Of a DNA stretch of 64,000 nt, positions 9,431-64,000 are shown piece after piece (positions within the stretch are counted from its first letter, which is position 1; each line of letters begins with the position of its first letter). This DNA comes from Eledone cirrhosa (lineage: Eukaryota): assembly GCA_964016885.1 (NCBI GenBank), contig OZ024758.1, positions 9,610,001-9,674,000 on the forward strand, in the 5' to 3' direction. A program made the position numbers and the translations under genes. The notes below the pieces were generated by a model. That model was not told the DNA's origin and ran no database searches. It was given only the letters and a program-made list of their open reading frames with translations.

Positions 9431-9513
9431 TTATCATTGTTATCATTGTTAAATAACCTGAACCAATAAGGTCTGGCTTCTTGGGTATGTCACCATTTAT
9501 AAAACAAATTTTG

Positions 9514-9574
9514 TATTTTATCTGATGAGAGCGTACCAACATTTTGGTACCCTTCAAATATATATAATAAAATA
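9514..9574 (+). ncRNA. Type I hammerhead motif with G12 to C core mutation (CAAA instead of GAAA), likely inactive
   Basis: Same stem I as the 10070 and 60827 copies; CTGATGA; stem II GAGCGTACCAA/TTGGTACCCTT; CAAA; ATATATAT palindrome; UA site. Confidence 0.65.
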
Positions 9575-9794
9575 AATATGGTGTCATAAATATAGTTTCC
9601 ATTTATTAACATCATTTATATATATATATACATAGGAAAATGTTTAACCCCGACGGCAGAGCTCAAGCCGTTTTGACGGCTTGAGCTCTGCCGTCGAGGT
9701 TAAACATTTTCCTATTACCCACTCTACTACCCTAAGTATTGAGTACTCTGGTGCGTTATGGTCCATCTGGTTCCTTACCACACTTCCTTCATTT

Positions 9795-9841
<47 letters not shown>

Positions 9842-9927
9842 AAACCCATAGTTTCAGAAGTTCCGTTAAGGGTGAAAGCAGTGATTCTTTGCTTAAACTT
9901 TAATCTGTTCTTATAATAAATAAATAA

Positions 9928-9976
<49 letters not shown>

Positions 9977-10069
9977 AAGGTTATATTTATCTATCCAGGA
10001 AGCTCCAACTGTTAAGGTTATCTTTTTTCAGAGTATGTCAATATTTATTTATAAAACTAATCTGTATTG

Positions 10070-10135
10070 TATTTTATCTGATGAAAGCGCACCATAATTT
10101 GCCTTGGTGGCCCTTGAAATATGTATAATAAAATA
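10070..10135 (+). ncRNA. Type I hammerhead ribozyme with intact core
   Basis: Stem I TATTTTAT/ATAAAATA; CTGATGA 10078-10084; stem II AAGCGCACCA...TGGTGGCCCTT; GAAA 10116-10119; stem III ATATGTAT (plausibly a CpG-decayed ATACGTAT palindrome); AUA site after 10127. Confidence 0.75.
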
Positions 10136-10247
10136 AATATGGTTTTATAAATATGGTTTTATAAATATAGTTTCCATTTGTTAATATATTGTATATATAT
10201 ATATATCCCACCAAGGCAAATTATGGTGCGCTTTCATCAGATAAAAT

Positions 10248-10280
<33 letters not shown>

Positions 10281-12759: not shown

Positions 12760-12880
12760 ATATTAATTCAAAATATTAACAAAATATATATTCTTGTGAT
12801 CAAGTATATTTTATTATAGTTAACTTAAACTGTATGTCCTCATCAGATAAAATAAGATGATGCATGACATACCCTGACAT
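12760..12880 (-). mobile_element. PLE-like remnant with deleted hammerhead
   Basis: Minus strand reads gggtatgtca...TATTTTAT CTGATGA ggacatacagtt...TA ATAAAATA. The stem II 3' arm and GAAA are lost. Confidence 0.5.
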
Positions 12881-12941
12881 AGTAGATGGTTAAGATTCAG
12901 TCATGGTAGTTTAACTTTTAAATATATATATATATATATAT

Positions 12942-30898: not shown

Positions 30899-31039
30899 AT
30901 GGTTTATATTGTTGAGACAGAGCTGCCTAACTTTCAGGCATACAAGACTATGATGTCTGGAATGCAGAAGCTACCAAATCTATGGTATCCTCGGTCATTC
31001 TCAGCAGATAACTTATTTGCTATGCAAAATAAGAAAACT
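30899..31039 (+). CDS. Probable first coding exon of a PDZ-domain scaffold gene (tamalin/GRASP-CYTIP-like): MVYIVETELPNFQAYKTMMSGMQKLPNLWYPRSFSADNLFAMQNKKT
   Basis: ATG in strong Kozak context (acaATGG), 47 open codons in unique non-repeat sequence, then a consensus donor ACT|GTAAGT in phase 0, compatible with the exon at 57421. Confidence 0.75.
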
Positions 31040-32807
31040 GTAAGTAATTCCTAACAAATTACATTTTACAATTTTAACTTTTTTATTACCATATTGTAAA
31101 GGATGTACATTATTTGACTTAATGGGGAATGAGGAGAAAAAGCAAATGTTGAATGATATGATGATGGTTTCGTTATCAAGATGGTATTTGTAATATAAGA
31201 GGTTCTTATATAAAATAATGTTGGAAGGTTTTAATCTAAATAGGGACCCTTTAAAATGAATGTTTTATGCAACCAGGAGTAGTTGGGTGGGTGGTACAAA
31301 AGGATGAAATAACTTATTTCTCATCATAGTTTCATTTATTATGATTTCTAGATTTGATTAAAAAAAATATCTGTCTATATAAATAACAGAGATTTGTAAA
31401 TTATGTAAATTACCATATATACTCATATATACTCCAAGAAATATGTGACAAAAAAAATCGATGGTAAAATGGAGGTCTGCTTATACCTTTTTAATACCAA
31501 ATTATGTAAAACCAGTCTGGTTCTGATACACATTTGCTATTTTAAAATGCTCATACTTATATTAATATCTTTCATCAGAAATTTTTGTTAACCAGTTTTG
31601 GCCTGGCTGGTAACAAAAGGGTTAAGTAATATTTCAAACATCAGTTTACTAATGAAAAGGTTGTTGTATATACTTGTATATAAGCCAAGAAATATGTGAC
31701 AAAAAAAAAAAAAAATCGATGGGTTCGCCTTGTATTCTATGTAAATGAGATGCTAAAATAATTTTGCTTTGGGGGTGAATATTATACCAGTTTCACTTTG
31801 GAGGTGACTGTTAGACCAGTTTCACTTTTGACGTAAAACTTGTATTCCCTGTTGTTTTTTTATGTTTAGAGATGTATATAGCATTCAAAACAGTTGGAAA
31901 TTGGTACAAAATCATTATGTAATGGAGTTGTGAAACAAAGTGTACACTAAATGACACTTAATATATTTTAAATATCAAAATATTCAAACTTCATAAATAT
32001 ATTCTCCCCTCATGAGAATTTTAAATCCACACCATCTAAACATAATGTGTTGATTATCTACCTCGGCTTATAAATGGGGTTTGGATTTTTGCCTATTTAT
32101 CAAATATAAAATAGGAGGCCAACTTATATTCAGATCAGCTTATATTTTAGTATAGATGGTACTTCTAGATTTAGTATCAATAAGTAGGTGAGAAACAGAT
32201 GAAACACCTACTAGATCAGACACCTGTCTGTTACTAGCAACATTCCTAGCTGAGCTGGTAACAGTTCTCCACAGTGAATATACACCTGAAATAATGTAGC
32301 ATTAAGTATCCTCTTCCAAAAATAACTAAATGAATTAAAAGCTCACATCTGATTTGAACTTTTAACTTATAATGTGGTAGTACATTATACTAATACATTA
32401 GCCACACCAACCAATTTATTTTTTCAATTTTACAAAGTGTAAGAAGAATTGAATTAGTTATGTGAAATAATAAAATTAAAAATGTTACCATATGCCTAAT
32501 TTTCAATTTTGTTACCATATGCTTGATTTTCAAATCATTTTGAAAATGATAAAATACTTAGGAAGAATTTAGTAAAATATTTAACTTTCTTATTAAGTTG
32601 GTGTTTGGAATATAACTCAATAAAGTTTCCAACATAAGTTTATTATGGAAGATGTTTTGATAAATATAAACACTTTAAAATAACCAGCTTGATATCATAG
32701 AACCAGGTACGGTTTCAGGAAGTTTTGTATTAAAAGTGTTAAGTTATAGTAATTTCTTTATATTTTGCTGACTTTTCCATTATATATACATGTGTGTGTG
32801 TGTATAT

Positions 32808-53297: not shown

Positions 53298-56230
53298 TTG
53301 ATTGCAGTCTCATACAAAAGAAGATGAAGTATTCCGAGAAGTGTCTTTAACCCTAGGTCAGTCCAAGACTTGTGAGTGAAACAGGATTGAGTGAAAAGTT
53401 CATAGGCTGACAATGACAGTGGTTGTGGTGGTGGTGGTGGTAGTGGTGACAGTGGTGGTAGTGGTGGTGGTGGTGGTAGTGGTGGTGGTAATAATTGATA
53501 GGAAGAAGAATGGTCACACCTGATAACTTGTAGAGATGATACTTTGGGGCTAGTTATTGTAAAGGTGATGCTGGGGGGGGGGGGGCAGTAGCTGTTGTGA
53601 GGTGGTGGTGGTGATAGGGGGGGGGGTTAGCAGTAGCTGTTGTGAGATGCTGGTGGTAATAGGGGGGTAGTAGCTGTTGTGAGGTGGTGGTGGTGGTGTT
53701 GATAGGGGAGGTTAGCAGTAGCTGTTGTGAGATGGTGGTGGTGATAGGGGGGGGGGGTAGTAGCTGTTGTGATGTGGTGGTGGTGGTGATAGGGGGTTAG
53801 CAGTAGCTGTTGTGAGATGGTGGTGGTGATAGGGGGGGTAGTAGCTGTTGTAAGGTGGTGGTGGTGATGTGATAATTTGTGTATTTTTCTGGCTGAAACC
53901 AAGAAATATGTGCAAATGCCATGCAGCACAGCAAGGGAAAATTGAAGATAAATAATTCAGTATTGACCAGCAAAGTATGGATTAACTGTTCCTCTGCATA
54001 AGGTGGATAATGTTGCTTGCCTCAGGCAACTTGGCTGACAACAGGTTTCACTCCACTCCACTTCAATTAAACTTTTGAGGTCATTAGTGGAAGAAATTAC
54101 ACTTTTAATGCCAAAATAGTGATGAGAGGCTGCTAGCAAGAGTTGTACTGGTATCCACAGATAAAGTCAATTCTTAATCAGAACCACTGATCTCTCAGAT
54201 TATCTGGGACTTCATCTCTCTTACATGTATCATTGCACTCTACAAAATGAACTGTGTGTTTTAGAGAGGTTCTTATATCCTTGACATAACTGAAGAGTCC
54301 TTTCTGCCCTGCCCTTTGTTTGGCAAGTTTTCTATAGCTGGATGCTTAGAATGTACTGTGCATGTCTTATCTAAATCTAACACTACATTATACAATAGGC
54401 CTTTCCTTCAGTTCCAACCAGGCCAAAACCGGCCCTGGTTCTATGAAATAAAACCATCCATTTTAAAGTTTCCAATTTAAAAATCAAATTTTCCAACATA
54501 ATTTTATATTAGAACCTTACAATAAGTTTTTGTCTTAGTAATGACAATAGTACCAGTGGCACCCCAACAACTAGCTGTACCAGTGGCACCCACCCCAACT
54601 ACTAGCTGTACCAGTGGCACCCCAACAACTGACTGTACCAGTGGCACCCCAACAACTGACTGTACCAGTTGCAGCAACATCACAGTGATAACTATCTTTC
54701 TAGCCTGTCTTGAGTCTGTATCAGTTTTATTAGTATTTCTAAAACCTACAAATTTACAGTAGGTATCACACATGTTATTACAAGGTGAGCAGAAAAACGG
54801 CTATAAACTATCCTTACAATTAAGTGGCAAAACCTTCCTTGTCCTAAATACTCAAATGTCAGCTGACTATTATTATAATGAAGAGACAGTTGGTTATATA
54901 TAATTTCATATTTTGTTGTTGTCATTGCTCTTGTCATGTCATCATGGCTGCTGTTTTAGTGACAGTTGGAGTTTGGTTGAAGTTGTATTTGTTTTTGTTG
55001 TTGCTATTGCTGTGGTTGTAGTTGTTGTTGCTGTGCTTGTTGTTGTTGTTGTTGTTGTTGTCATTTCTGTCTGCTGTTTCATTGTTGTCATTGCTCTTAT
55101 CATCATGAGGAGGGGGAGGGGGTGTTTATTTGTTGTTATTTTTGTTGACATTGTTCTTGTTGTCCTTGTTTTTGTCACCACTTCAGATCTGTCATTCATT
55201 AGCAGCTCTGGTAAGGAGGTTCAAGGCCATCATTATATTTTTATATGGTAATGGTGCTATTGTTGTGATTGTTTATGTATTATTTTTGTTTGTTATTTTG
55301 TTGTTTTTTTTGTTTTGGGTTTGTTTTTCTCTAAATCTTCACTTCCATTGTACCATTATGACAACAGAACTGTCCAGAGGGCAAATCTCTTGCTCCAGGC
55401 AGAATCAAAAGATTTACTCTCCACCTCAACCCTTTGTCCACCACTTAAAACTTTGTACTCAATCAGAGTGTTGACCTCAAAACAATTAACTACATAGTAA
55501 CAATATATTCTTTCAGCTCTGCTTACTAGTGCTTCCATGCTCTTCACAAGTCTGTCATACCTTCTATATGTTCCTTTGATATATTCTGTTGCTTTGTCTT
55601 AACAAGTGCCAGCTGTAGAGGCAGACAGTAACTTCTTAGAAGACTGACAGTACAACCTACTTTCAAATTCCCAAGTTATAATAACCATTTCACTTCATCT
55701 AGTTAACACCTTTGGTAAAGGCATGAACACCACAACATACAATTTCCTCCCATCCGAACGTCTATGGCAGTGTGCATGTGTAAGAAATTATTGTTATTAT
55801 TACTGTTATTTTATTACCCCCCCCCCCCCCCCCTCCCCCCCTTAGAGGTTGATGAAATACGTAGGTACCAGTGATGTATTAGGGTCAATCTAATATAGTC
55901 TATTTTTTATCATTCAGTTCAAAATCATTGTTGTTATTGTAAATGGCAGTTCGTGAGAGTTCAAATCCTACTACGGTCAACTTTACCTTTCATCCTTCCA
56001 GGCTCAATAAAATAAAATACCAGTAAAGAACTAGGGTCGATAGAATCCCCCCCCCCCCGCCCCAATTATTGATTTTGTGCTGCGAGGTTAACTTTGCCTT
56101 TCATCCTTACGGTAATTGCTGGCCTTGTGCCAAAAGTAGAAACAATTTATTATTTGCAGTTCAAATCCTGCCATGGTTAGCTTTACCTTTCATCCATCAG
56201 GGGCCAATAGAATAAAGTAGCAGTTAAGTA

Positions 56231-56412
56231 AGAGGGTGAGTTAAACAGTTAATAGGCTGACTATAAAGGAGTTATGCTAGAGCTGTGCAATTTTGCATGA
56301 ATACTGACTCTTCTTATTAATAACTGCATTGTTTCTTTCCAGGGACTATATTGAAAAATAAACATCATGAGAGTATCTTGGTTAGCCTATGAACTTCTCA
56401 GCCAACCCTTAT
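56231..56412. mobile_element. mariner-type MITE
   Basis: Same TIR family, decayed. Confidence 0.65.
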
Positions 56413-56949
56413 ACTGAGGTTGATGTAATCAATTTTGTCCTTCCTCAAATTGCTTGCCTTGTGTCAATTTTAGAAAAAAATTATTAATTGCAGTGGGCTG
56501 ATCACCGTGGTGATATAATATCAAAATAAATGCCTGGCAATTTCTGAGGTTTAATTTTCTAGAGTTCTCTGTTGGTTCTGAGTACAAATACTACTAAAGC
56601 TGATTTTTATCTTATATTTCTATTTTATGTTATTGTTTTTTTTAACCAGTTCCTAGTTTAATGGTTAAACCACTGGTTTACTGATAGAATAAATACCAGT
56701 AATTTATTGGTAGTTAATTCAATAAATTATAACTCTTTCACTACAAATACAAATTCCTGCATTGAGTTTAAGTAAGAGATCCTTATTAGTTTCTTATATT
56801 GATTTCTGTTATATACTAATATTGTTTGGGGAAAGGCAGCAGATGCAAGTTAAAAATAATGGAGTGAAACACAAGAATAAAGAAAAACAAAGAAGAGCAA
56901 CAATTTATACTTATATTTCATGTTATTTCGAGGTTAACTTCGGATCATA

Positions 56950-57190
56950 ATGCGGTGAGTTCGATTTTTGTTCCAGATTGTCTATTGTTTTCTTGAGCAA
57001 AACACTTCATTTCACATTGCTCCAGTATACTGAGTATTTTAGTACCAGCAATAGCTGAGGGTTTAACTCTGTAATGGACTGGCTGCCTGTCCAGGGGGAA
57101 GTCTTGTACTCTCAGTCACTTCAAGCTTTATAAACCAAGATAAACACTGGCCTGATGAGTCTCCAGGCTTGAGACATATTAGACTTAGAA
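56950..57190 (+). mobile_element. CORE-type SINE (tail type 1), 5' decayed
   Basis: Homologous to 982-1263. Confidence 0.7.
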
Positions 57191-57231
57191 TGTGTTAATG
57201 TACATTTCTTGATGCATGAATTTTTAATTAG

Positions 57232-57390
57232 AATTCTACTGCTCCCTGCATTGGAATTCTACTGCTCCCTGTATTAAGTTCTACTGCTCCCTGCATTAGA
57301 GTTCTAATGCTCCCTGCATTAAACATGTTCACACCCTGAATTAAACATGTTCACTCCCTGCATTAAACACGTTCACTCCCTGCACTAAAC
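57232..57390. repeat. ~22-bp minisatellite abutting the 3' splice site
   Basis: Repeated ctccctgcatta..; the last unit ends ~30 nt before the acceptor. Confidence 0.85.
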
Positions 57391-57420
57391 TGTTACACTT
57401 CTTGTTTTCTTTCTTTACAG

Positions 57421-57564
57421 GTGATACCAAAAGTGTCATCCATTGGGGAAGAACTCGCCTATCTAGAGAAAGACCGCTCAATTACCACTGACCCAACGGA
57501 GAGCAAAAAGAGACGTACAATAAAGTTAATACGAACAAATTCATCATGGGGTTTCACCTTACAG
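57421..57564 (+). CDS. Internal coding exon beginning a PDZ domain: VIPKVSSIGEELAYLEKDRSITTDPTESKKRRTIKLIRTNSSWGFTLQ (tamalin/GRASP/CYTIP-like)
   Basis: Long polypyrimidine tract ending TTTACAG, 144 nt open (phase 0/0), donor CAG|GTAAAT. RRTIKLIR..SWGFTLQ matches PDZ strand A plus the GLGF-type loop and, from recall, resembles the R-x-I/L-x-L/V...F/YGFxI/LQ start of GRASP/CYTIP PDZ domains. Confidence 0.85.
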
Positions 57565-57584
57565 GTAAATATATAGTTTTGGTG

Positions 57585-58071
57585 CTACGACAAAAAGCAG
57601 CCAGTCCACACTGTAAAGTGGTCATGTAGGTCTCACGATAAAAAGCAGCCAGTCTACACTGTAAAGTGGTCATGTAGGTGTCACAACAAAAAGCAGCCAT
57701 TCCACACTGTAAAGTGGTCATGTAGGTGTCACGATAAAAAGCAGCCAGTCCACACTGTAAAGTTGTCATGTAGGTGTCACAACAAAAAGCAGCCAGTCCA
57801 CACTATAAAGTGGTCATGTAGGTGTCACAACAAAAAGCAGCCAGTCCACACTGTAAAGTGGTCATGTAGGTGTCACGACAAAAAGCACCCAGCACACACT
57901 GTAATTGTGGTTGGCATTAGGAAGGGCATCCAACCATAGAAACCAAGCCCAAACCAGTTCTGTATGAGCAAGACATGCTCATCTGATCTAGCATGTCTCA
58001 CAATGGGACACCTCATCTAACTCATGCTAGCATGGAAAAATGGTTGTTAAACGATGATGATGATGATGATG
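57585..58071 (+). mobile_element. RTE 3'UTR with 48-bp tandem array (~6 units)
   Basis: Unit aaaaagcagccagtccacactgtaaagtggtcatgtaggtgtcacaac. A related array in the opposite orientation lies at 32808-33175. Confidence 0.8.
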
Positions 58072-58530
58072 TTCACCAGCATAAGCAAATGTGAATTATT
58101 TTGTCCAAGGTACACTATACCTGAAATAAAGTTCGAGTGGACATGGGTTTGCTCTTGATCAGAGCTAAACAACAATAACATATATAACCAGCAGAGCTGT
58201 TCATTATTTCAATATAGTAAGTGTGGGTTGGTAGTCTTTGGTGTGGGTTGGAGATGTCTTCTCTTGTGAAAATGGCTATAGCTTTCATTATGTAAGATCT
58301 CCTCATATTGCCTCAATTCGCCACATTTTGGGCACTTTTTTTTCATGGCACCCCCTGTTTGGGCTTTTAGAGGTTGGCGTGTCTGTTATAGGTACTTGAT
58401 TGGTCCTTCATTTGCTCTATCATAGTGTGAAGCCAAGTCAGTTTTGGTTGTTACCCAGAAATGCGACTAAAGGATTAAGTTCAATGTCCTATTCATTCTG
58501 TTAATATGCTGTTTTCCCAACAATATTCTA

Positions 58531-58712
58531 GGATTGGCAGTGTCGGTAGAGCGTCGGATGCCATGCTTTGACGCAGAGTTACGGCCCTTGCCATTCTGAG
58601 TTCAAATCCCGCCGAGGTTAACTTTGCCTTTCATCCTTACGGGGTCGATAAAATAAAGTACCAGTAATACACTAGGATAATTGCTGGCCTTGTGCCAAAA
58701 GTAGAAACAAAT
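58531..58712 (+). mobile_element. SINE family 2
   Basis: Near-identical to 35493-35678. Confidence 0.85.
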
Positions 58713-59574
58713 ATTCTATCACTCCTCAAACTGTTGTTTATCATAGTTTTATTTTTGTGTGTCATTTTAAAAAATATTAATACGAGGAAATTAATATTTC
58801 TAAAAAAATTGTTTTCTAATTTTCCCAAATAATGTAATTGCTTTTTCGTTTTTTTTTTGTTTTTTTTAGTATTTTTAGTTTTTTTAAACTTGAAATTTGA
58901 ATTAGTTATTATTAATATTAAAATTTTTAAATTCCTGCAACATTTTTCAAAGTATTTTGTTTGTCTGCATCAACAGAAAACATTGCCAGTAGATACCATC
59001 TGATGTTAAAAACTACATAGTATAATTTATATAAACTAGGTTAACATATTCGATTGGCTTCTGCACAGTTTCCATCTGCCAAATTCCACAATCCAACGAT
59101 AGGAGAATAACGTATCCTGTTTCCTACTTGCACAATGATGTTTCAAAAGTTTGACAACTACTATGGTATAACATGTGTAGGGTGGGTTTTAGAGGAAGAA
59201 CTTGTGATGATAGTGAACATACAAGTGTACATTATAGTATTCAATGGTTTCGTCTGAGGTCATATTGACCTTTGACTTTCAAACTGTTCAATGGCTGACC
59301 TTTGAATAGTTTAAGTATAGGTTAGAGTTGACCTTTACCTTTAATCCCTCTGAGGAGGTGAGTCAATGAAATCAGCAGCAGTCAAATAAACTGAAGCTGA
59401 TAAAATCAAGTGTAGCATCTCTTATTAGAAGTAACACTATTGAATTATTAAAGACTGGTTTGGAAGGGGAGGAAGATTTTATTATATTTTATTTCTGAAA
59501 TAGCATAGCATCTAGGTCTTCTTTTAAATATGGCTTTAAAGAAGAATAGGGGACATTGGTGTGGGGTAGGGTAT

Positions 59575-59835
59575 GTATGGTCCTGTAATTCCTCATGGAG
59601 TCATAGGGGCACTGTAGTGCCATACAGCATTTCTAGGGCATTTTAAGCCTGGCGGAGCCCATCTTCCCTTCATATCTGAACACAGCAGATTTCTTCCAGA
59701 GAAAGATAGAAAGTAAGAGAGAGGAAGTGGGAAAGAGATATAGAGGAAGAATCAGTCCCAGTACTAGACTGGGACTTTAATTATCGACCTCAAATGGATG
59801 AAATGCAAAGTTGACCGCGGTGGGATTTAAACTCA
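59575..59835 (-). mobile_element. SINE with family-2 body but a different 3' region (also 40900-41100 minus and 44010-44275 plus)
   Basis: Shared gcagatttcttccagaga..gatagaaag..gaaagagatata..ggaagaatc segment joined to the family-2 central domain. Confidence 0.6.
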
Positions 59836-60418
59836 GGTTATCTTAGACAAAATCCAAAAGTCTGTGAACGTAATGCCGTATGATGCTCATTTTACAGCCA
59901 AATTTACAAAAAGAAGAGAGAATCTTCTCCACAAGTTCACCATAATTATCAGCCTTATAGTTCCTAAGGAAATTTTTCCTTGATGATCATGTATACATCT
60001 CAATGTTGTCCAGTTAATCTTGGAAAAGCTGGTCTTTCATGAAATATCCAAAATGTAGTCTAAACTCCCAGAATCCAAGAATATATATAAGTGGTTGTGG
60101 AGGTGCCACGGCAAAAAAGCACCCAGCACTCACTGTAAATGAGGTTGGTGTTAGGAAGGGCATCCAGCTGTAGAAATCAAGCCAGAATCAGTTCCCGTCC
60201 CACCCTTGCAAGCAGGGAAAAAGCGGACGTAAAATGAAATGAAATGATGATTGTGTGTAACATGTTAGCATGGAAAAATGGACATTAAACAGTGATGATG
60301 ATGATACAGGGTGGTGCTAAAGTCACGCACCAGTAAAATAACATTTTGTCATAATATCTTCATATTTGTGATATAAAAGTTTTTCTTGTGATTAGGGTAG
60401 TGTATGACTTTTGCATTA

Positions 60419-60463
<45 letters not shown>

Positions 60464-60640
60464 GGAGAGGTGGTAGTGCATTATAAGCCTTCGCCCCCTC
60501 ACCAGATGTTCTTTAGTAGATTCAGTTGCCACCACTTTGAGGGCGACTGGCCGAGCAGCTAGTTGGTCAGTCGTCCTCTTTGTCTCTGTCTCTGATTTTT
60601 CGGACTCATGGTTTTTTACATATTCGTTTGTTATATTCGA

Positions 60641-60698
60641 ATACCTGATGATATCACCGGATTCATATGGAACCCGGTCATTGAAATGATCATAGTAT
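60641..60698 (+). ncRNA. Type I hammerhead ribozyme motif
   Basis: Stem I ATAC/GTAT; CTGATGA; stem II ACCGG.TTC/GAA.CCGGT with a weak base (U.U at the first pair); GAAA; palindrome ATGATCAT; AUA site after 60694; AATAAA follows immediately. Confidence 0.7.
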
Positions 60699-60826
60699 AA
60701 TAAACCTTTCAAGGATTTACACCAGTCCAGCCTCCTGTTATTTTATTTTATTTATATATATATATATATATAGATTTAACACTTCACTGCTCACAAGTGT
60801 TTTTTAAGCTTCATATCATGTCTCCC

Positions 60827-60897
60827 TATTTTATCTGATGAGAACGCAAATATCATCCCATGATGATATTTGTTTTTGAAATGCGCATAATAAAATA
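60827..60897 (+). ncRNA. Type I hammerhead ribozyme with intact core
   Basis: Stem I TATTTTAT/ATAAAATA (8 bp); CTGATGA 60835-60841; 16-bp stem II (GU pairs, one C.U mismatch, CCAT loop); GAAA 60878-60881; palindromic stem III ATGCGCAT; AUA cleavage site after 60889. Confidence 0.85.
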
Positions 60898-60927
60898 CAT
60901 GGAACTCTTTTAACCATCTTTTGATCT

Positions 60928-60976
<49 letters not shown>

Positions 60977-61286
60977 ATCAAAAGATGGTTAAAAGAGTTC
61001 CATGTATTTTCTTATGCGCATTTCAATATTATAGATATATATATACCCGCCACCACCCCTACACACCCCACACCCTTCCACCACCTGTTTACCCCCCTTT
61101 TAATTTCAGTATATTTTGATCATGCCTTTATTTTTAAATTTATCTCATTCCTTGTATTTTGATCATGCTTTATTTTTATTTTTATCTTTATCTTTTATTT
61201 TTTCATTCGCACCGTTTCCTTTCGCTATATGTCTCTCCACCACTCCCCTATACACCCTTTGAACTCTGTTCCCACACACTTCTCAC

Positions 61287-61314
61287 CTGAGGAAGGGCTT
61301 ATGCCCGAAACGTC
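61287..61314 (+). ncRNA. Minimal Penelope-type hammerhead core
   Basis: CTGAGGA-A-GGGC[TTAT]GCCC-GAAA-CG-TC, with AATAAA ~40 nt downstream. Stem I pairing is poor. Confidence 0.55.
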
Positions 61315-61887
61315 GCCCCCCACCAACACCCCACTCTCCAGAGCGTGAAATTAATAAACATTCGTTGTACTGCCTCTCTGTTTTGTCCCTGTTCAAATTT
61401 TTCCATTATATATATTTGTTCCCCAGTGTTATTTGCTCACTCAAAAGATTTCACTATTGTTTTGAACATCTGAAATCTAATCAGTTTCTTACCATATAAT
61501 TCTATTTCTAGACATATGGTATACGGCATAAGAAAAATAATGAAATTGAAATCACGACTTATGTAGATTATGTGGAGATTGACAAGCCTGCTTGGATTGC
61601 AGGGATGCGGCAAGGTGAGAAATGATAAAGTAGCAATTTCTTTAATTTCATCAACATAAGGATTATCTGCTCCTTCAAGGTGCAAAATATACATTATTAT
61701 AAAAGAAATCTATTTTTCTATTGTCTTTCTATGTCTGTCTATATCGATCTCTCTACCTATTTATTTCTCTCTCACACACTCTCTCTCACTCTCTCTCTCT
61801 CTCTTTCTTTCTCTCTCACTCTCTCTCTCTCTTTCTCACGCTTTCTCTCTCTCTATATATATATATCAGGAAAAAATTGAACTGTTA

Positions 61888-62222
61888 ACTTTATCAACCC
61901 AGTACATTACTGGTACTTTACTTTATCAACCCAGTACATTACTGGTACTTTACTTTATCAACCCAGTACATTACTGGTACTTTACTTTATCAATCCTGTA
62001 CATTACTGGTACTTTACTTTATCAATCCTGTACATTACTGGTACTTTACTTTATCAACCCAGTACATTACTGGTACTTTACTTTATCAACCCAGTACATT
62101 ACTGGTACTTTACTTTATCAACCCAGTACATTACTGGTACTTTACTTTATCAACCCAGTACATTACTGGTACTTTACTTTATCAACCCAGTACATTACTG
62201 GTACTTTACTTTTTCAATCCTG
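61888..62222. repeat. 31-bp minisatellite (~10 units) derived from the SINE family 2 body
   Basis: Unit actttatcaacccagtacattactggtactttt-like, continuing into the minus-strand SINE at 62222-62560. Confidence 0.92.
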
Positions 62223-62269
62223 TAAGGATGAAAGGTAAATCTAACCTCAGCGGGATTTGAATTCAGAAC

Positions 62270-62498
62270 TTAACCTTTTAGCATTTAAACCAGTCAAATC
62301 TGGCCAGAATTCTCTCACCCCTTTCTGTTCAAACTGGCTGTAACTGGTCAGTCATATTTATGTTAAGGTATTGTTCTCAAAATAAATAATATCAAAATCT
62401 CGTAGATTCGATATTATGTGAGATAATAATGTGAGGTAAAGCCTTTACCGCGAAAATACAATAGTAAATATAGATATTTGTAAATGGTAAAGGGTTAA
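62270..62498 (-). mobile_element. piggyBac-type MITE nested in a SINE
   Basis: Reverse-orientation copy with TTAA TSD; the SINE sequence resumes on both sides. Confidence 0.85.
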
Positions 62499-62754
62499 AG
62501 TGCCATAGTTCTATGTCACAAAGCAGATTGTTCGACGCTCTACCAACCCACCACCCTTAATAATACCATCTAAATAATGAAATAATTAATCATCTTATTA
62601 AATCTTTCCAAATTCTTTATCAATTCCAATAGAATTTCATTGTAAATATGGTGATAAAAGGCTCGATGTTGTGTCTACTTGATATGTCTATATATTTCCT
62701 TGTTATGTTCATCATAATCAACATTTTGATCATTATATGTAAATTACAAATAAT

Positions 62755-62945
62755 GGGCGGTGTATTGGCAGTATCGGTAGAGGGTCGGACGCCATGCTTT
62801 CCAGCATAGTTACGTCCCTTTGCGGTCTGAGTTCAAATCCCGCCGAGGTTGACTTTGCCTTTCATCCTCACGCGGTCGATAAAATAAAGTACCAGTAATG
62901 TTCTGGGGGTAATTGCTGGCCTTGTGCCAAAAGTAGAAACAATTA
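62755..62945 (+). mobile_element. SINE family 2
   Basis: Full-length copy with A/B boxes. Confidence 0.85.
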
Positions 62946-63285
62946 TATGTAAATTACAAACACAATGAAATGAGAAGACCAGTTTGTGTGTATGTACTCA
63001 GACAGTCATTATATATGCAAAATCATTCTCTCTCTCACACATACACCCCACTAACATTTACATATTCTCACACTACCACTAAACACATATATCATAGCAT
63101 GCATTGTTATGCAAATAGTTATATGTGTATATCTACACATCATTACACAGGTTCTGTTGAAACAAAGCAAAGATCAAACAATAGCTTCCCACTTTCCCAT
63201 AGGCATATTTTAAACACGCACATACATATAAATATTATCTATCTATCTATCCATCTATATATCTTGTGGCTAATAAAGAAATTTA

Positions 63286-63331
<46 letters not shown>

Positions 63332-63468
63332 CTATGTATCTCTCTCTATATATACACACATATATACGCTCACACACACATATATTATCTATCTATCTAT
63401 CCATCTATATATCTTGTGGCTAATAAAGAAATTTATCCATCTATCTATATATATATATTATCTATATA

Positions 63469-63516
<48 letters not shown>

Positions 63517-63659
63517 TATATACGCTCACACACACATATATTATCTATCTATCTATCAGAATGGAAGTAGTAAAAACCAAAAAACCAGTTAGACCATTAC
63601 TCACCAAAGTACTCGATACTTGAAGTAGTAGATATATATATATATATATTATTTATCTA

Positions 63660-63700
<41 letters not shown>

Positions 63701-63922
63701 TTAAAAGATACTAATGGGAAAGTGGCAAGATTTTGTTTGCTCATTGCTCAAACAATAAATATATGTAAAGGTGCAAGCATGACTGTGTAGTTGAAAAGTT
63801 TGCTTTGGAGTCATGTGGTTTGTGTTTTCCACTAGAGTTATAGTCAACTAATGCCTTCCTTATAACATCACCCTTTTTTTAGTATATTTGTCCATGCCAG
63901 CATGGGTTTATAAATAAATACA

Positions 63923-63995
<73 letters not shown>

Positions 63996-64000
63996 TACTT

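Follow-up and report, generated by a model that had tools for sequence, protein, structure and literature searches.

The 64-kb stretch of Eledone cirrhosa DNA analysed here (the window) includes exons of a GRASP/tamalin-type PDZ gene, one intron of which carries three hammerhead motifs, HHR1, HHR2 and HHR3, embedded in repeat-derived sequence (Table 1). The exon before this intron matches GRASP-type PDZ proteins of Octopus and Argonauta at 85–90% (three hits among six candidates), and this match, the position of the following exon and the GT-AG borders together place all three motifs inside the intron and on its sense strand, as the initial annotation had stated. The splice acceptor lies 817, 622 and 197 nt past HHR1, HHR2 and HHR3 respectively. 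Elsewhere in the gene, an upstream exon of one GRASP isoform (window positions 30899–31042, 85% to P0001) precedes the next one by 26 kb, and further host exons lie past the window at 67876, 68806, 69569 and 76803 (extended coordinates). Later host introns contain two extra intact sense hammerheads of a fourth family (L073:4448 and L074:2306), the second of which has an antisense partner with an altered core. Counting every hammerhead of the gene that is intact by the strict descriptor, 5/5 are in the sense orientation, at three sites.

Other repeats are seen in the vicinity. Short tandem arrays with units of about 21, 43 and 32 nt occupy window positions 57236–57400, 57580–57900 and 61885–62215 respectively; they resemble SINE-like repeats common in octopus, pieces of which would have been amplified. 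Repeat ends with hammerheads in a more advanced state of decay, with inverted pairs among them, lie upstream of the gene at 9455–10272 and 12760–12910.

Table 1. Features of the hammerhead cluster and its host intron (window coordinates).
Feature	Position	Strand	Remark
GRASP/tamalin-type PDZ gene exon	57421..57564	+	ends WGFTLQ; protein match
GT-AG intron, 3,947 nt	57565..61511	+	cluster near its 3' end; from exon borders
(TG)20 tract, 5' junction of family A	60422..60461	.	
Family A, 5'-truncated 3' end	60460..60756	+	ORF-less, ~1.9-kb tandem-forming element
HHR1, minimal type I hammerhead	60641..60698	+	U.U at stem II base
(TA)10 tract	60753..60772	.	
Family B, pLTR-sized 3' end	about 60773..60935	+	Hydra-type Penelope-like element
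HHR2, minimal type I hammerhead	60827..60897	+	8-bp stem I
(TA)21 tract	60933..60974	.	centre of 150-nt hairpin
Inverted 5'-truncated family B piece	60970..61026	-	tail-to-tail; complementary to 60876-60940
(TA)5 tract	61036..61045	.	
Family C, 5'-truncated 3' end	61045..61415	+	Neptune-like Penelope-like element
HHR3, minimal core	61286..61315	+	one stem-I pair
(TA)4 tract, family C 3' end	61407..61414	.	
Next host exon	61512..61614	+	starts TYGI; 197 nt past HHR3 cut site

Indexing of the sequence confirms the three plus-strand motifs of the initial annotation in all their cores, palindromes and cut sites. In HHR1 the core at 60645–60651 is followed by a 31-nt stem II and GAA at 60683–60685, then by the palindrome ATGATCAT at 60686–60693 and A60694 as H17, with the cut site after 60694 and a stem I of 4 bp. 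HHR2 has its core at 60835–60841, a 36-nt stem II, GAA at 60878–60880, the palindrome ATGCGCAT at 60881–60888 and A60889 as H17; its cut site follows 60889 and its stem I has 8 bp, and the interval between the two cut sites (60695–60889) is 195 nt. The core of HHR3 at 61287–61293 is accompanied by an extra A, a 4-bp stem II and GAA at 61307–61309, the palindrome is ACGT, and the cut site follows C61314 (H17). Only a single stem-I pair is present in HHR3, as base 61316 differs from that of 19/19 other copies of its repeat family (family C) and the second of two stem-I pairs is thereby lost. All three possess the elements of a minimal type I hammerhead, namely a CUGANGA and GAAA core, a stem II, a palindromic stem III and a UH site, and the core is identical in 20/20 best-hit copies for each of the three families. 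Of the three, HHR3 alone has a G10.1–C11.1 pair and an additional base following A9, the equivalent pair being U.U in HHR1 and G.U in HHR2, and at stem-II position 4 both HHR1 and HHR2 are mismatched (C.C or C.U).

A strict hammerhead descriptor finds exactly these three motifs within the 64 kb, and ten in 340 kb made up of 34 arbitrarily placed 10-kb stretches of the genome. As it finds none in five shuffles of the same 340 kb, we conclude that the three motifs are not chance occurrences; for the genome of 3.0 Gb the number of strict motifs is estimated at ~88,000, with a range of about 42,000–162,000. The Infernal-type search proposed earlier does not recover them, the Rfam models giving no hammerhead match at E≤1 in a scan of 56000–64000, and HHR1–3 are therefore minimal variants lying outside those models. 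The same scan matched microRNA-type models at the (TA)n hairpin, but no match reached its gathering score and these were rejected. An AATAAA-like signal had also been reported after each motif. The hexamer is indeed present, starting at 60699, 60889 and 61353, with two of the three overlapping or abutting stem I, but all three are an integral part of the repeat ends and we do not regard them as special signals.

Further support comes from a comparison of stem II in 70 distinct related motifs, which have an AU...AU palindrome and an A at the cut site and were collected without a stem-II filter. Seven positions (2, 3 and 5–9) pair in 57–67 of these 70 motifs, which within one family are related and not independent, and the types of pair vary between families. 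This apparent covariation across families supports the hammerhead structure. A mismatch, C.C or C.U, occupies position 4 in 66/70 motifs, and its conservation possibly reflects a tertiary contact.

Each motif belongs to a separate repeat family with its own 3' end, in agreement with the original proposal that this is a pile-up of different families and not a simple tandem array. Exact copies of an 18-base motif number 6,110 for family A, 24,036 for B and 4,642 for C genome-wide, with 0–1 for the reversed controls. The best-scoring other copies are 97–99% identical to the window modules, copies taken in order of position have a median identity to the window of 93, 89 and 91% (A, B and C), and the 5' ends of the copies are variable, reflecting truncation. 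Seven long copies (three of B, four of C) were chosen for having long open frames. An ORF with a reverse transcriptase (RT) plus a GIY-YIG endonuclease at the C terminus, both assigned by their motifs, lies upstream of the B end in 3/3 and of the C end in 4/4 of them; Pfam gave no match to four ORF fragments. The proteins and the hammerhead palindromes agree with the Penelope-like origin and palindromic stem III that had been put forward for the cluster.

The family B ORFs have YRDD, and all three have a CxCX5C linker, no CCHH, and CxxC and CxH at the endonuclease end, together with DKT in two of the three, the third being without that region. RWI, as opposed to RWK in Hydra, is seen in the single ORF that reaches this motif, and the unit is about 3.7 kb. 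The B end is present in 27/30 loci anchored on the endonuclease, and in L143 B ends flank the ORF on both sides in a pLTR arrangement. Assignment of family B to Naiad was rejected, its endonuclease being C-terminal, and by the motifs tested family B is Hydra-type. Another young Hydra-type family (L245:3200–6400 and L248–L272) is 97–98% identical among best hits; in 25/25 copies a simple pattern fails to find a canonical hammerhead core in the 3' end ahead of the first (TA)5. In family C a CX2-5CxxC linker and a CxxC inside GIY-YIG are found in 4/4 ORFs and DKG in 3/4, along with YIDD, and the terminal repeat is present as the 3' copy alone in 4/4 long copies. Family C thus follows the Neptune/Nematis pattern by its motifs, and we describe it as Neptune-like, the two clades being alike on these criteria. 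Behind one family C copy (L044), at 450–1298 nt and on the opposite strand, lie three hammerheads of a single family with a spacing of 424 nt, resembling a retrozyme tandem.

Family A is of another kind. Its four long loci have no long ORF, tblastn gave no match to the B or C proteins in 23 loci, and a Hydra protein match was obtained in 3/30 further loci. A head-to-tail tandem of family A at L064:600–4800 (G000:C2:56955100–56959300) has an ORF-less unit of ~1.9 kb and three hammerhead-bearing ends, its copies ending ~65 or ~210 nt behind the hammerhead; Rfam gave no match to it. As candidate autonomous partner we considered the Hydra-type ORF that follows an A copy on the same strand in L245, the one of these three matches that was followed, but this is a separate insertion behind (TA)n, and 0/25 fetched copies of that Hydra-type family end in an A tail. 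No autonomous partner was found among the loci followed. Judged by its sequence, family A is a large non-autonomous relative of Penelope-like elements, much longer than the retrozymes described so far, and the U.U pair that it has in common with Hydra-clade hammerheads may hint at the nature of its helper.

The modules are arranged in the order (TG)20, A, (TA)10, B, (TA)21, inverted B piece, (TA)5, C and (TA)4. Neither the inverted piece nor the (TA)n tracts between the modules formed part of the first description of the locus. Insertion into (TA)n fits all the junction tracts of the window, and it is usual for these families, since (TA)4 is found within 300 nt behind the motif, at fixed distances, in 28/30 (A), 27/30 (B) and 28/30 (C) position-ordered copies. 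At random positions (TA)4 occurs within 40 nt in 7.7% of draws, a window size different from that of the 300-nt count. Hammerheads of another family lie within 700 nt at 7/90 sampled loci (8 motifs), which is about twice the background of 0.04 per locus. Across 1.5 kb, such neighbours are on the same strand in 9 cases and on the opposite strand in 10 among the 90 position-ordered loci (some of which overlap), and in 10 and 7 cases respectively among 57 best-hit loci. With 19 same and 17 opposite overall, and with a fourth piece in the window that is antisense, the common strand of HHR1–3 needs no special cause. Uniform placement would lead us to expect 0.003 such A-B-C arrangements genome-wide. 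The observed neighbour rate gives instead about 2,700 mixed pairs and roughly 34 same-strand triples, the latter a rough figure derived from small counts and overlapping loci on the assumption of independence.

These observations make it very probable, in our judgement, that the cluster consists of four 3' ends of three Penelope-like families, separated by (TA)n and likely to have arrived as successive independent insertions, with the hammerheads as nearly inactive passengers according to the folding predictions below. Each motif is the tail of a different common Penelope-like family at one TA microsatellite, so an ordinary pile-up is the likely origin. The order and the independence of the insertions we infer from this arrangement. 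By the known biology of these elements, for which the available text of PMC8557442 describes (TA)n targeting, truncation and inversion, the endonuclease would nick (TA)n, and target-primed reverse transcription would begin at the 3' end of the RNA and stop early, such that only the hammerhead-bearing tail lands. TA would remain on both sides and could serve as target for the next element, and family A would borrow an enzyme of this kind, with a Hydra-type family as the probable donor.

Folding predictions provide some insight into whether the motifs could act in the host transcript. Since nearest-neighbour energies omit tertiary contacts and proteins, only differences in energy count. The inverted piece (60970–61026) is the reverse complement of 60876–60940 and forms a 150-nt hairpin with it, and it is predicted to bury the GAAA, the palindrome and the cut site of HHR2: the predicted cost of folding HHR2 rises from 6.3 kcal/mol with the transcript end at 60900 to 32.0 at 61030, and that of its dimer-ready state from 3.2 to 28.9 kcal/mol in the presence of the inverted piece. 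The HHR1 fold has a predicted cost of about 13 kcal/mol and that of HHR3 about 10. Action as dimers has been proposed for minimal hammerheads of Penelope-like elements in PMC4209133, the accessible part of which also mentions one single minimal motif without cleavage in vitro, little cutting by dimers, and host factors as possible boosters of activity. The homoduplexes of the two palindromes are predicted at -9.2 and -12.5 kcal/mol, but the mixed duplex only at -2.8, and neither the window nor the 60 kb that follow it contain a same-family partner for a dimer.

Efficient self-cleavage of the pre-mRNA, which the initial annotation had suggested, is thus not borne out, given the lack of a same-family partner in cis, the predicted burial of HHR2 and the single motif left uncut in the portion of PMC4209133 available. 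HHR1 and HHR3 would be without a dimer partner, HHR3 would be nearly without stem I, and HHR2 would be buried once transcription has gone on for about 130 nt and has covered the inverted piece, and splicing is therefore predicted to remove the intron intact. On these energies the cluster should cut poorly or not at all. The earlier idea that cuts after 60694 and 60889 excise a circularising RNA of 195 nt fares no better, as the circle requires both cuts and is unlikely, with the weak mixed palindrome duplex and the predicted burial of HHR2 both against it. Overall, the motifs are real and their biology is known, and the cluster is likely to be inert.

Several other explanations deserve consideration, the most credible of which concerns the inverted piece and leaves the remainder of the preferred scheme intact. 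Tail-to-tail inverted arms occur at 0/90 sampled loci, as against head-to-head arms in 19/30 A, 15/30 B and 0/30 C loci, so the inverted piece is atypical and may be a local copy, made by template switching at the (TA)n palindrome and not by a fourth insertion. It deviates from the neighbouring arm by only about one base and has the same variant, which is consistent with this, although that variant is frequent in family B, very short truncated B pieces exist elsewhere, and the piece has a (TA)5 border of its own, as expected of an insertion. We regard template switching as possible but would not favour it. Joint movement of the entire stretch as a single composite element is so improbable as to be nearly negligible, notwithstanding the presence of three modules on one strand within 700 bases. 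No second site spanning two modules was found among 39 other scored candidates (40 scored of 4,376), and in a further scoring (40 scored of 994) the A-B junction did not recur at any of the 39 other places. Truncation point and (TA)n border are individual to each module. One further locus (L052) does have B-like and C ends on one strand, but it differs from the window in spacing, subfamily and intervening sequence.

The remaining alternatives assign activity to the ribozymes. Measurable cutting of the host pre-mRNA before splicing, by means of dimers formed in trans or with the help of proteins, could lower or tune GRASP/tamalin output, and the intact cores on the sense strand, 197–817 nt before the acceptor, are compatible with it. 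Thousands of family copies could supply partner RNAs, host factors may raise activity (as the accessible text of PMC4209133 suggests), and the intact strict hammerheads of the gene are all sense; but five motifs at three sites are too few to establish a bias, dimers cut weakly in vitro in that same account, HHR2 is predicted to be buried, HHR3 has its one stem-I pair, and the pieces are recent repeat copies rather than conserved elements. We consider such cutting unlikely. Alternatively, HHR1 and HHR2 might constitute a double hammerhead across families, a newborn chimeric retrozyme that releases a circularising RNA of 195 nt, a length within the retrozyme range of 170–400 nt given in the available part of PMC7229834. 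The outer three pairs on either side are common to both palindromes, and 7/8 positions can pair between the 5' strand of HHR2 stem I and the 3' strand of HHR1. However, this hybrid of HHR2 core and HHR1 site has a predicted cost of 15.5–25 kcal/mol, its reciprocal, in which the HHR1 core would act on the HHR2 site, breaks down at the first pair of stem I, the mixed duplex is weak and the HHR2 site predicted to be buried, and with no second A-B junction among the places scored we find this reading highly improbable. Such a circle, if it existed, would reveal a way in which retrozymes originate. A bolder scheme, to which we attach little more than a very slight probability, sees (TA)n pile-ups of Penelope-like elements as a nursery of chimeric ribozymes, in which a Hydra-type core cuts its neighbour's site, the intervening 195 nt close into a circle whose junction holds a rebuilt hybrid hammerhead, the intron of a neuronal-type scaffold gene is cut in this way, and the inverted piece acts as an off-switch. 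If true, new retrozymes would arise from host introns through chance adjacency, for which some 2,700 mixed pairs are estimated.

Returning to the pile-up of independent insertions, the locus illustrates the way in which retroelement ends that carry hammerheads but are unrelated become stacked through microsatellite targeting. The presence of at least five sense hammerheads in the introns of one host gene fits a low activity of solitary minimal hammerheads, and ~88,000 motifs suffice to test by strand counts whether the hammerheads of Penelope-like elements cut in vivo. For specialists, the ORF-less 1.9-kb hammerhead family with more than 6,000 copies and the C.C/C.U mismatch kept across several families may be of particular interest. 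A search of titles and abstract openings outside subscription papers returned nothing on mixed-family hammerhead pile-ups, which is weak evidence of absence, and no octopus hammerheads beyond Hydra-1_Obim.

Intronic hammerheads that are conserved are known from amniotes, where they are rare. HHR1–3 resemble these in their sense-strand intron position but are instead copies of families with thousands of members. Closer parallels are found among the Penelope-like elements themselves, for which expansions are reported in the Octopus vulgaris repeat paper, ribozymes not being mentioned in the part of it available. The Hydra clade of Craig et al. 2021 (PMC8557442, in available portions) includes the (TA)n-targeting Hydra-1_Obim of Octopus bimaculoides, and family B is like this clade in DKT, YRDD, CxCX5C, the lack of CCHH, CxxC and CxH, and also in its 3'-repeat hammerhead and (TA)n target. 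The hammerhead of Hydra-1_Obim differs from HHR2 in stem II, palindrome and cut base, and the clade is given as 'generally <3 kb' as against about 3.7 kb for family B. A U.U at the base of stem II, as in family A, recurs in the clade (rows of table S2). Family C agrees with the Neptune/Nematis clades, as the same portions describe them, in DKG, YIDD, the CX2-5CxxC linker and CxxC inside GIY-YIG, as well as in a minimal hammerhead that has a G-C closing pair and, ahead of stem II, an additional base; its stem I has two pairs (one in the window) and no inverted arm is seen in 30 loci.

Compared with the minimal hammerheads of Cervera and De la Pena 2014 (PMC4209133, accessible text), those of the window have the same intact core, long stem II and short palindromic stem III, and in both cases most copies are solitary, truncated and present in thousands. 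HHR1 and HHR2 differ in being without G10.1–C11.1 and the extra base and in carrying the C.C or C.U mismatch, and the dimer model presented there needs identical neighbours, whereas the neighbours in the window are different. Non-LTR retrozymes (PMC7229834; bioRxiv 10.64898/2026.07.22.740005; both in part) likewise have type I hammerheads in non-coding repeats, and ORF-less family A forms head-to-tail tandems as they do. In the accounts available, though, a retrozyme is a tandem of one unit of 170–400 nt with a canonical hammerhead, in contrast to the three unrelated modules of the window and to the minimal hammerhead and ~1.9-kb unit of family A. The cluster behaves like debris of a kind known from Penelope-like retrotransposition.
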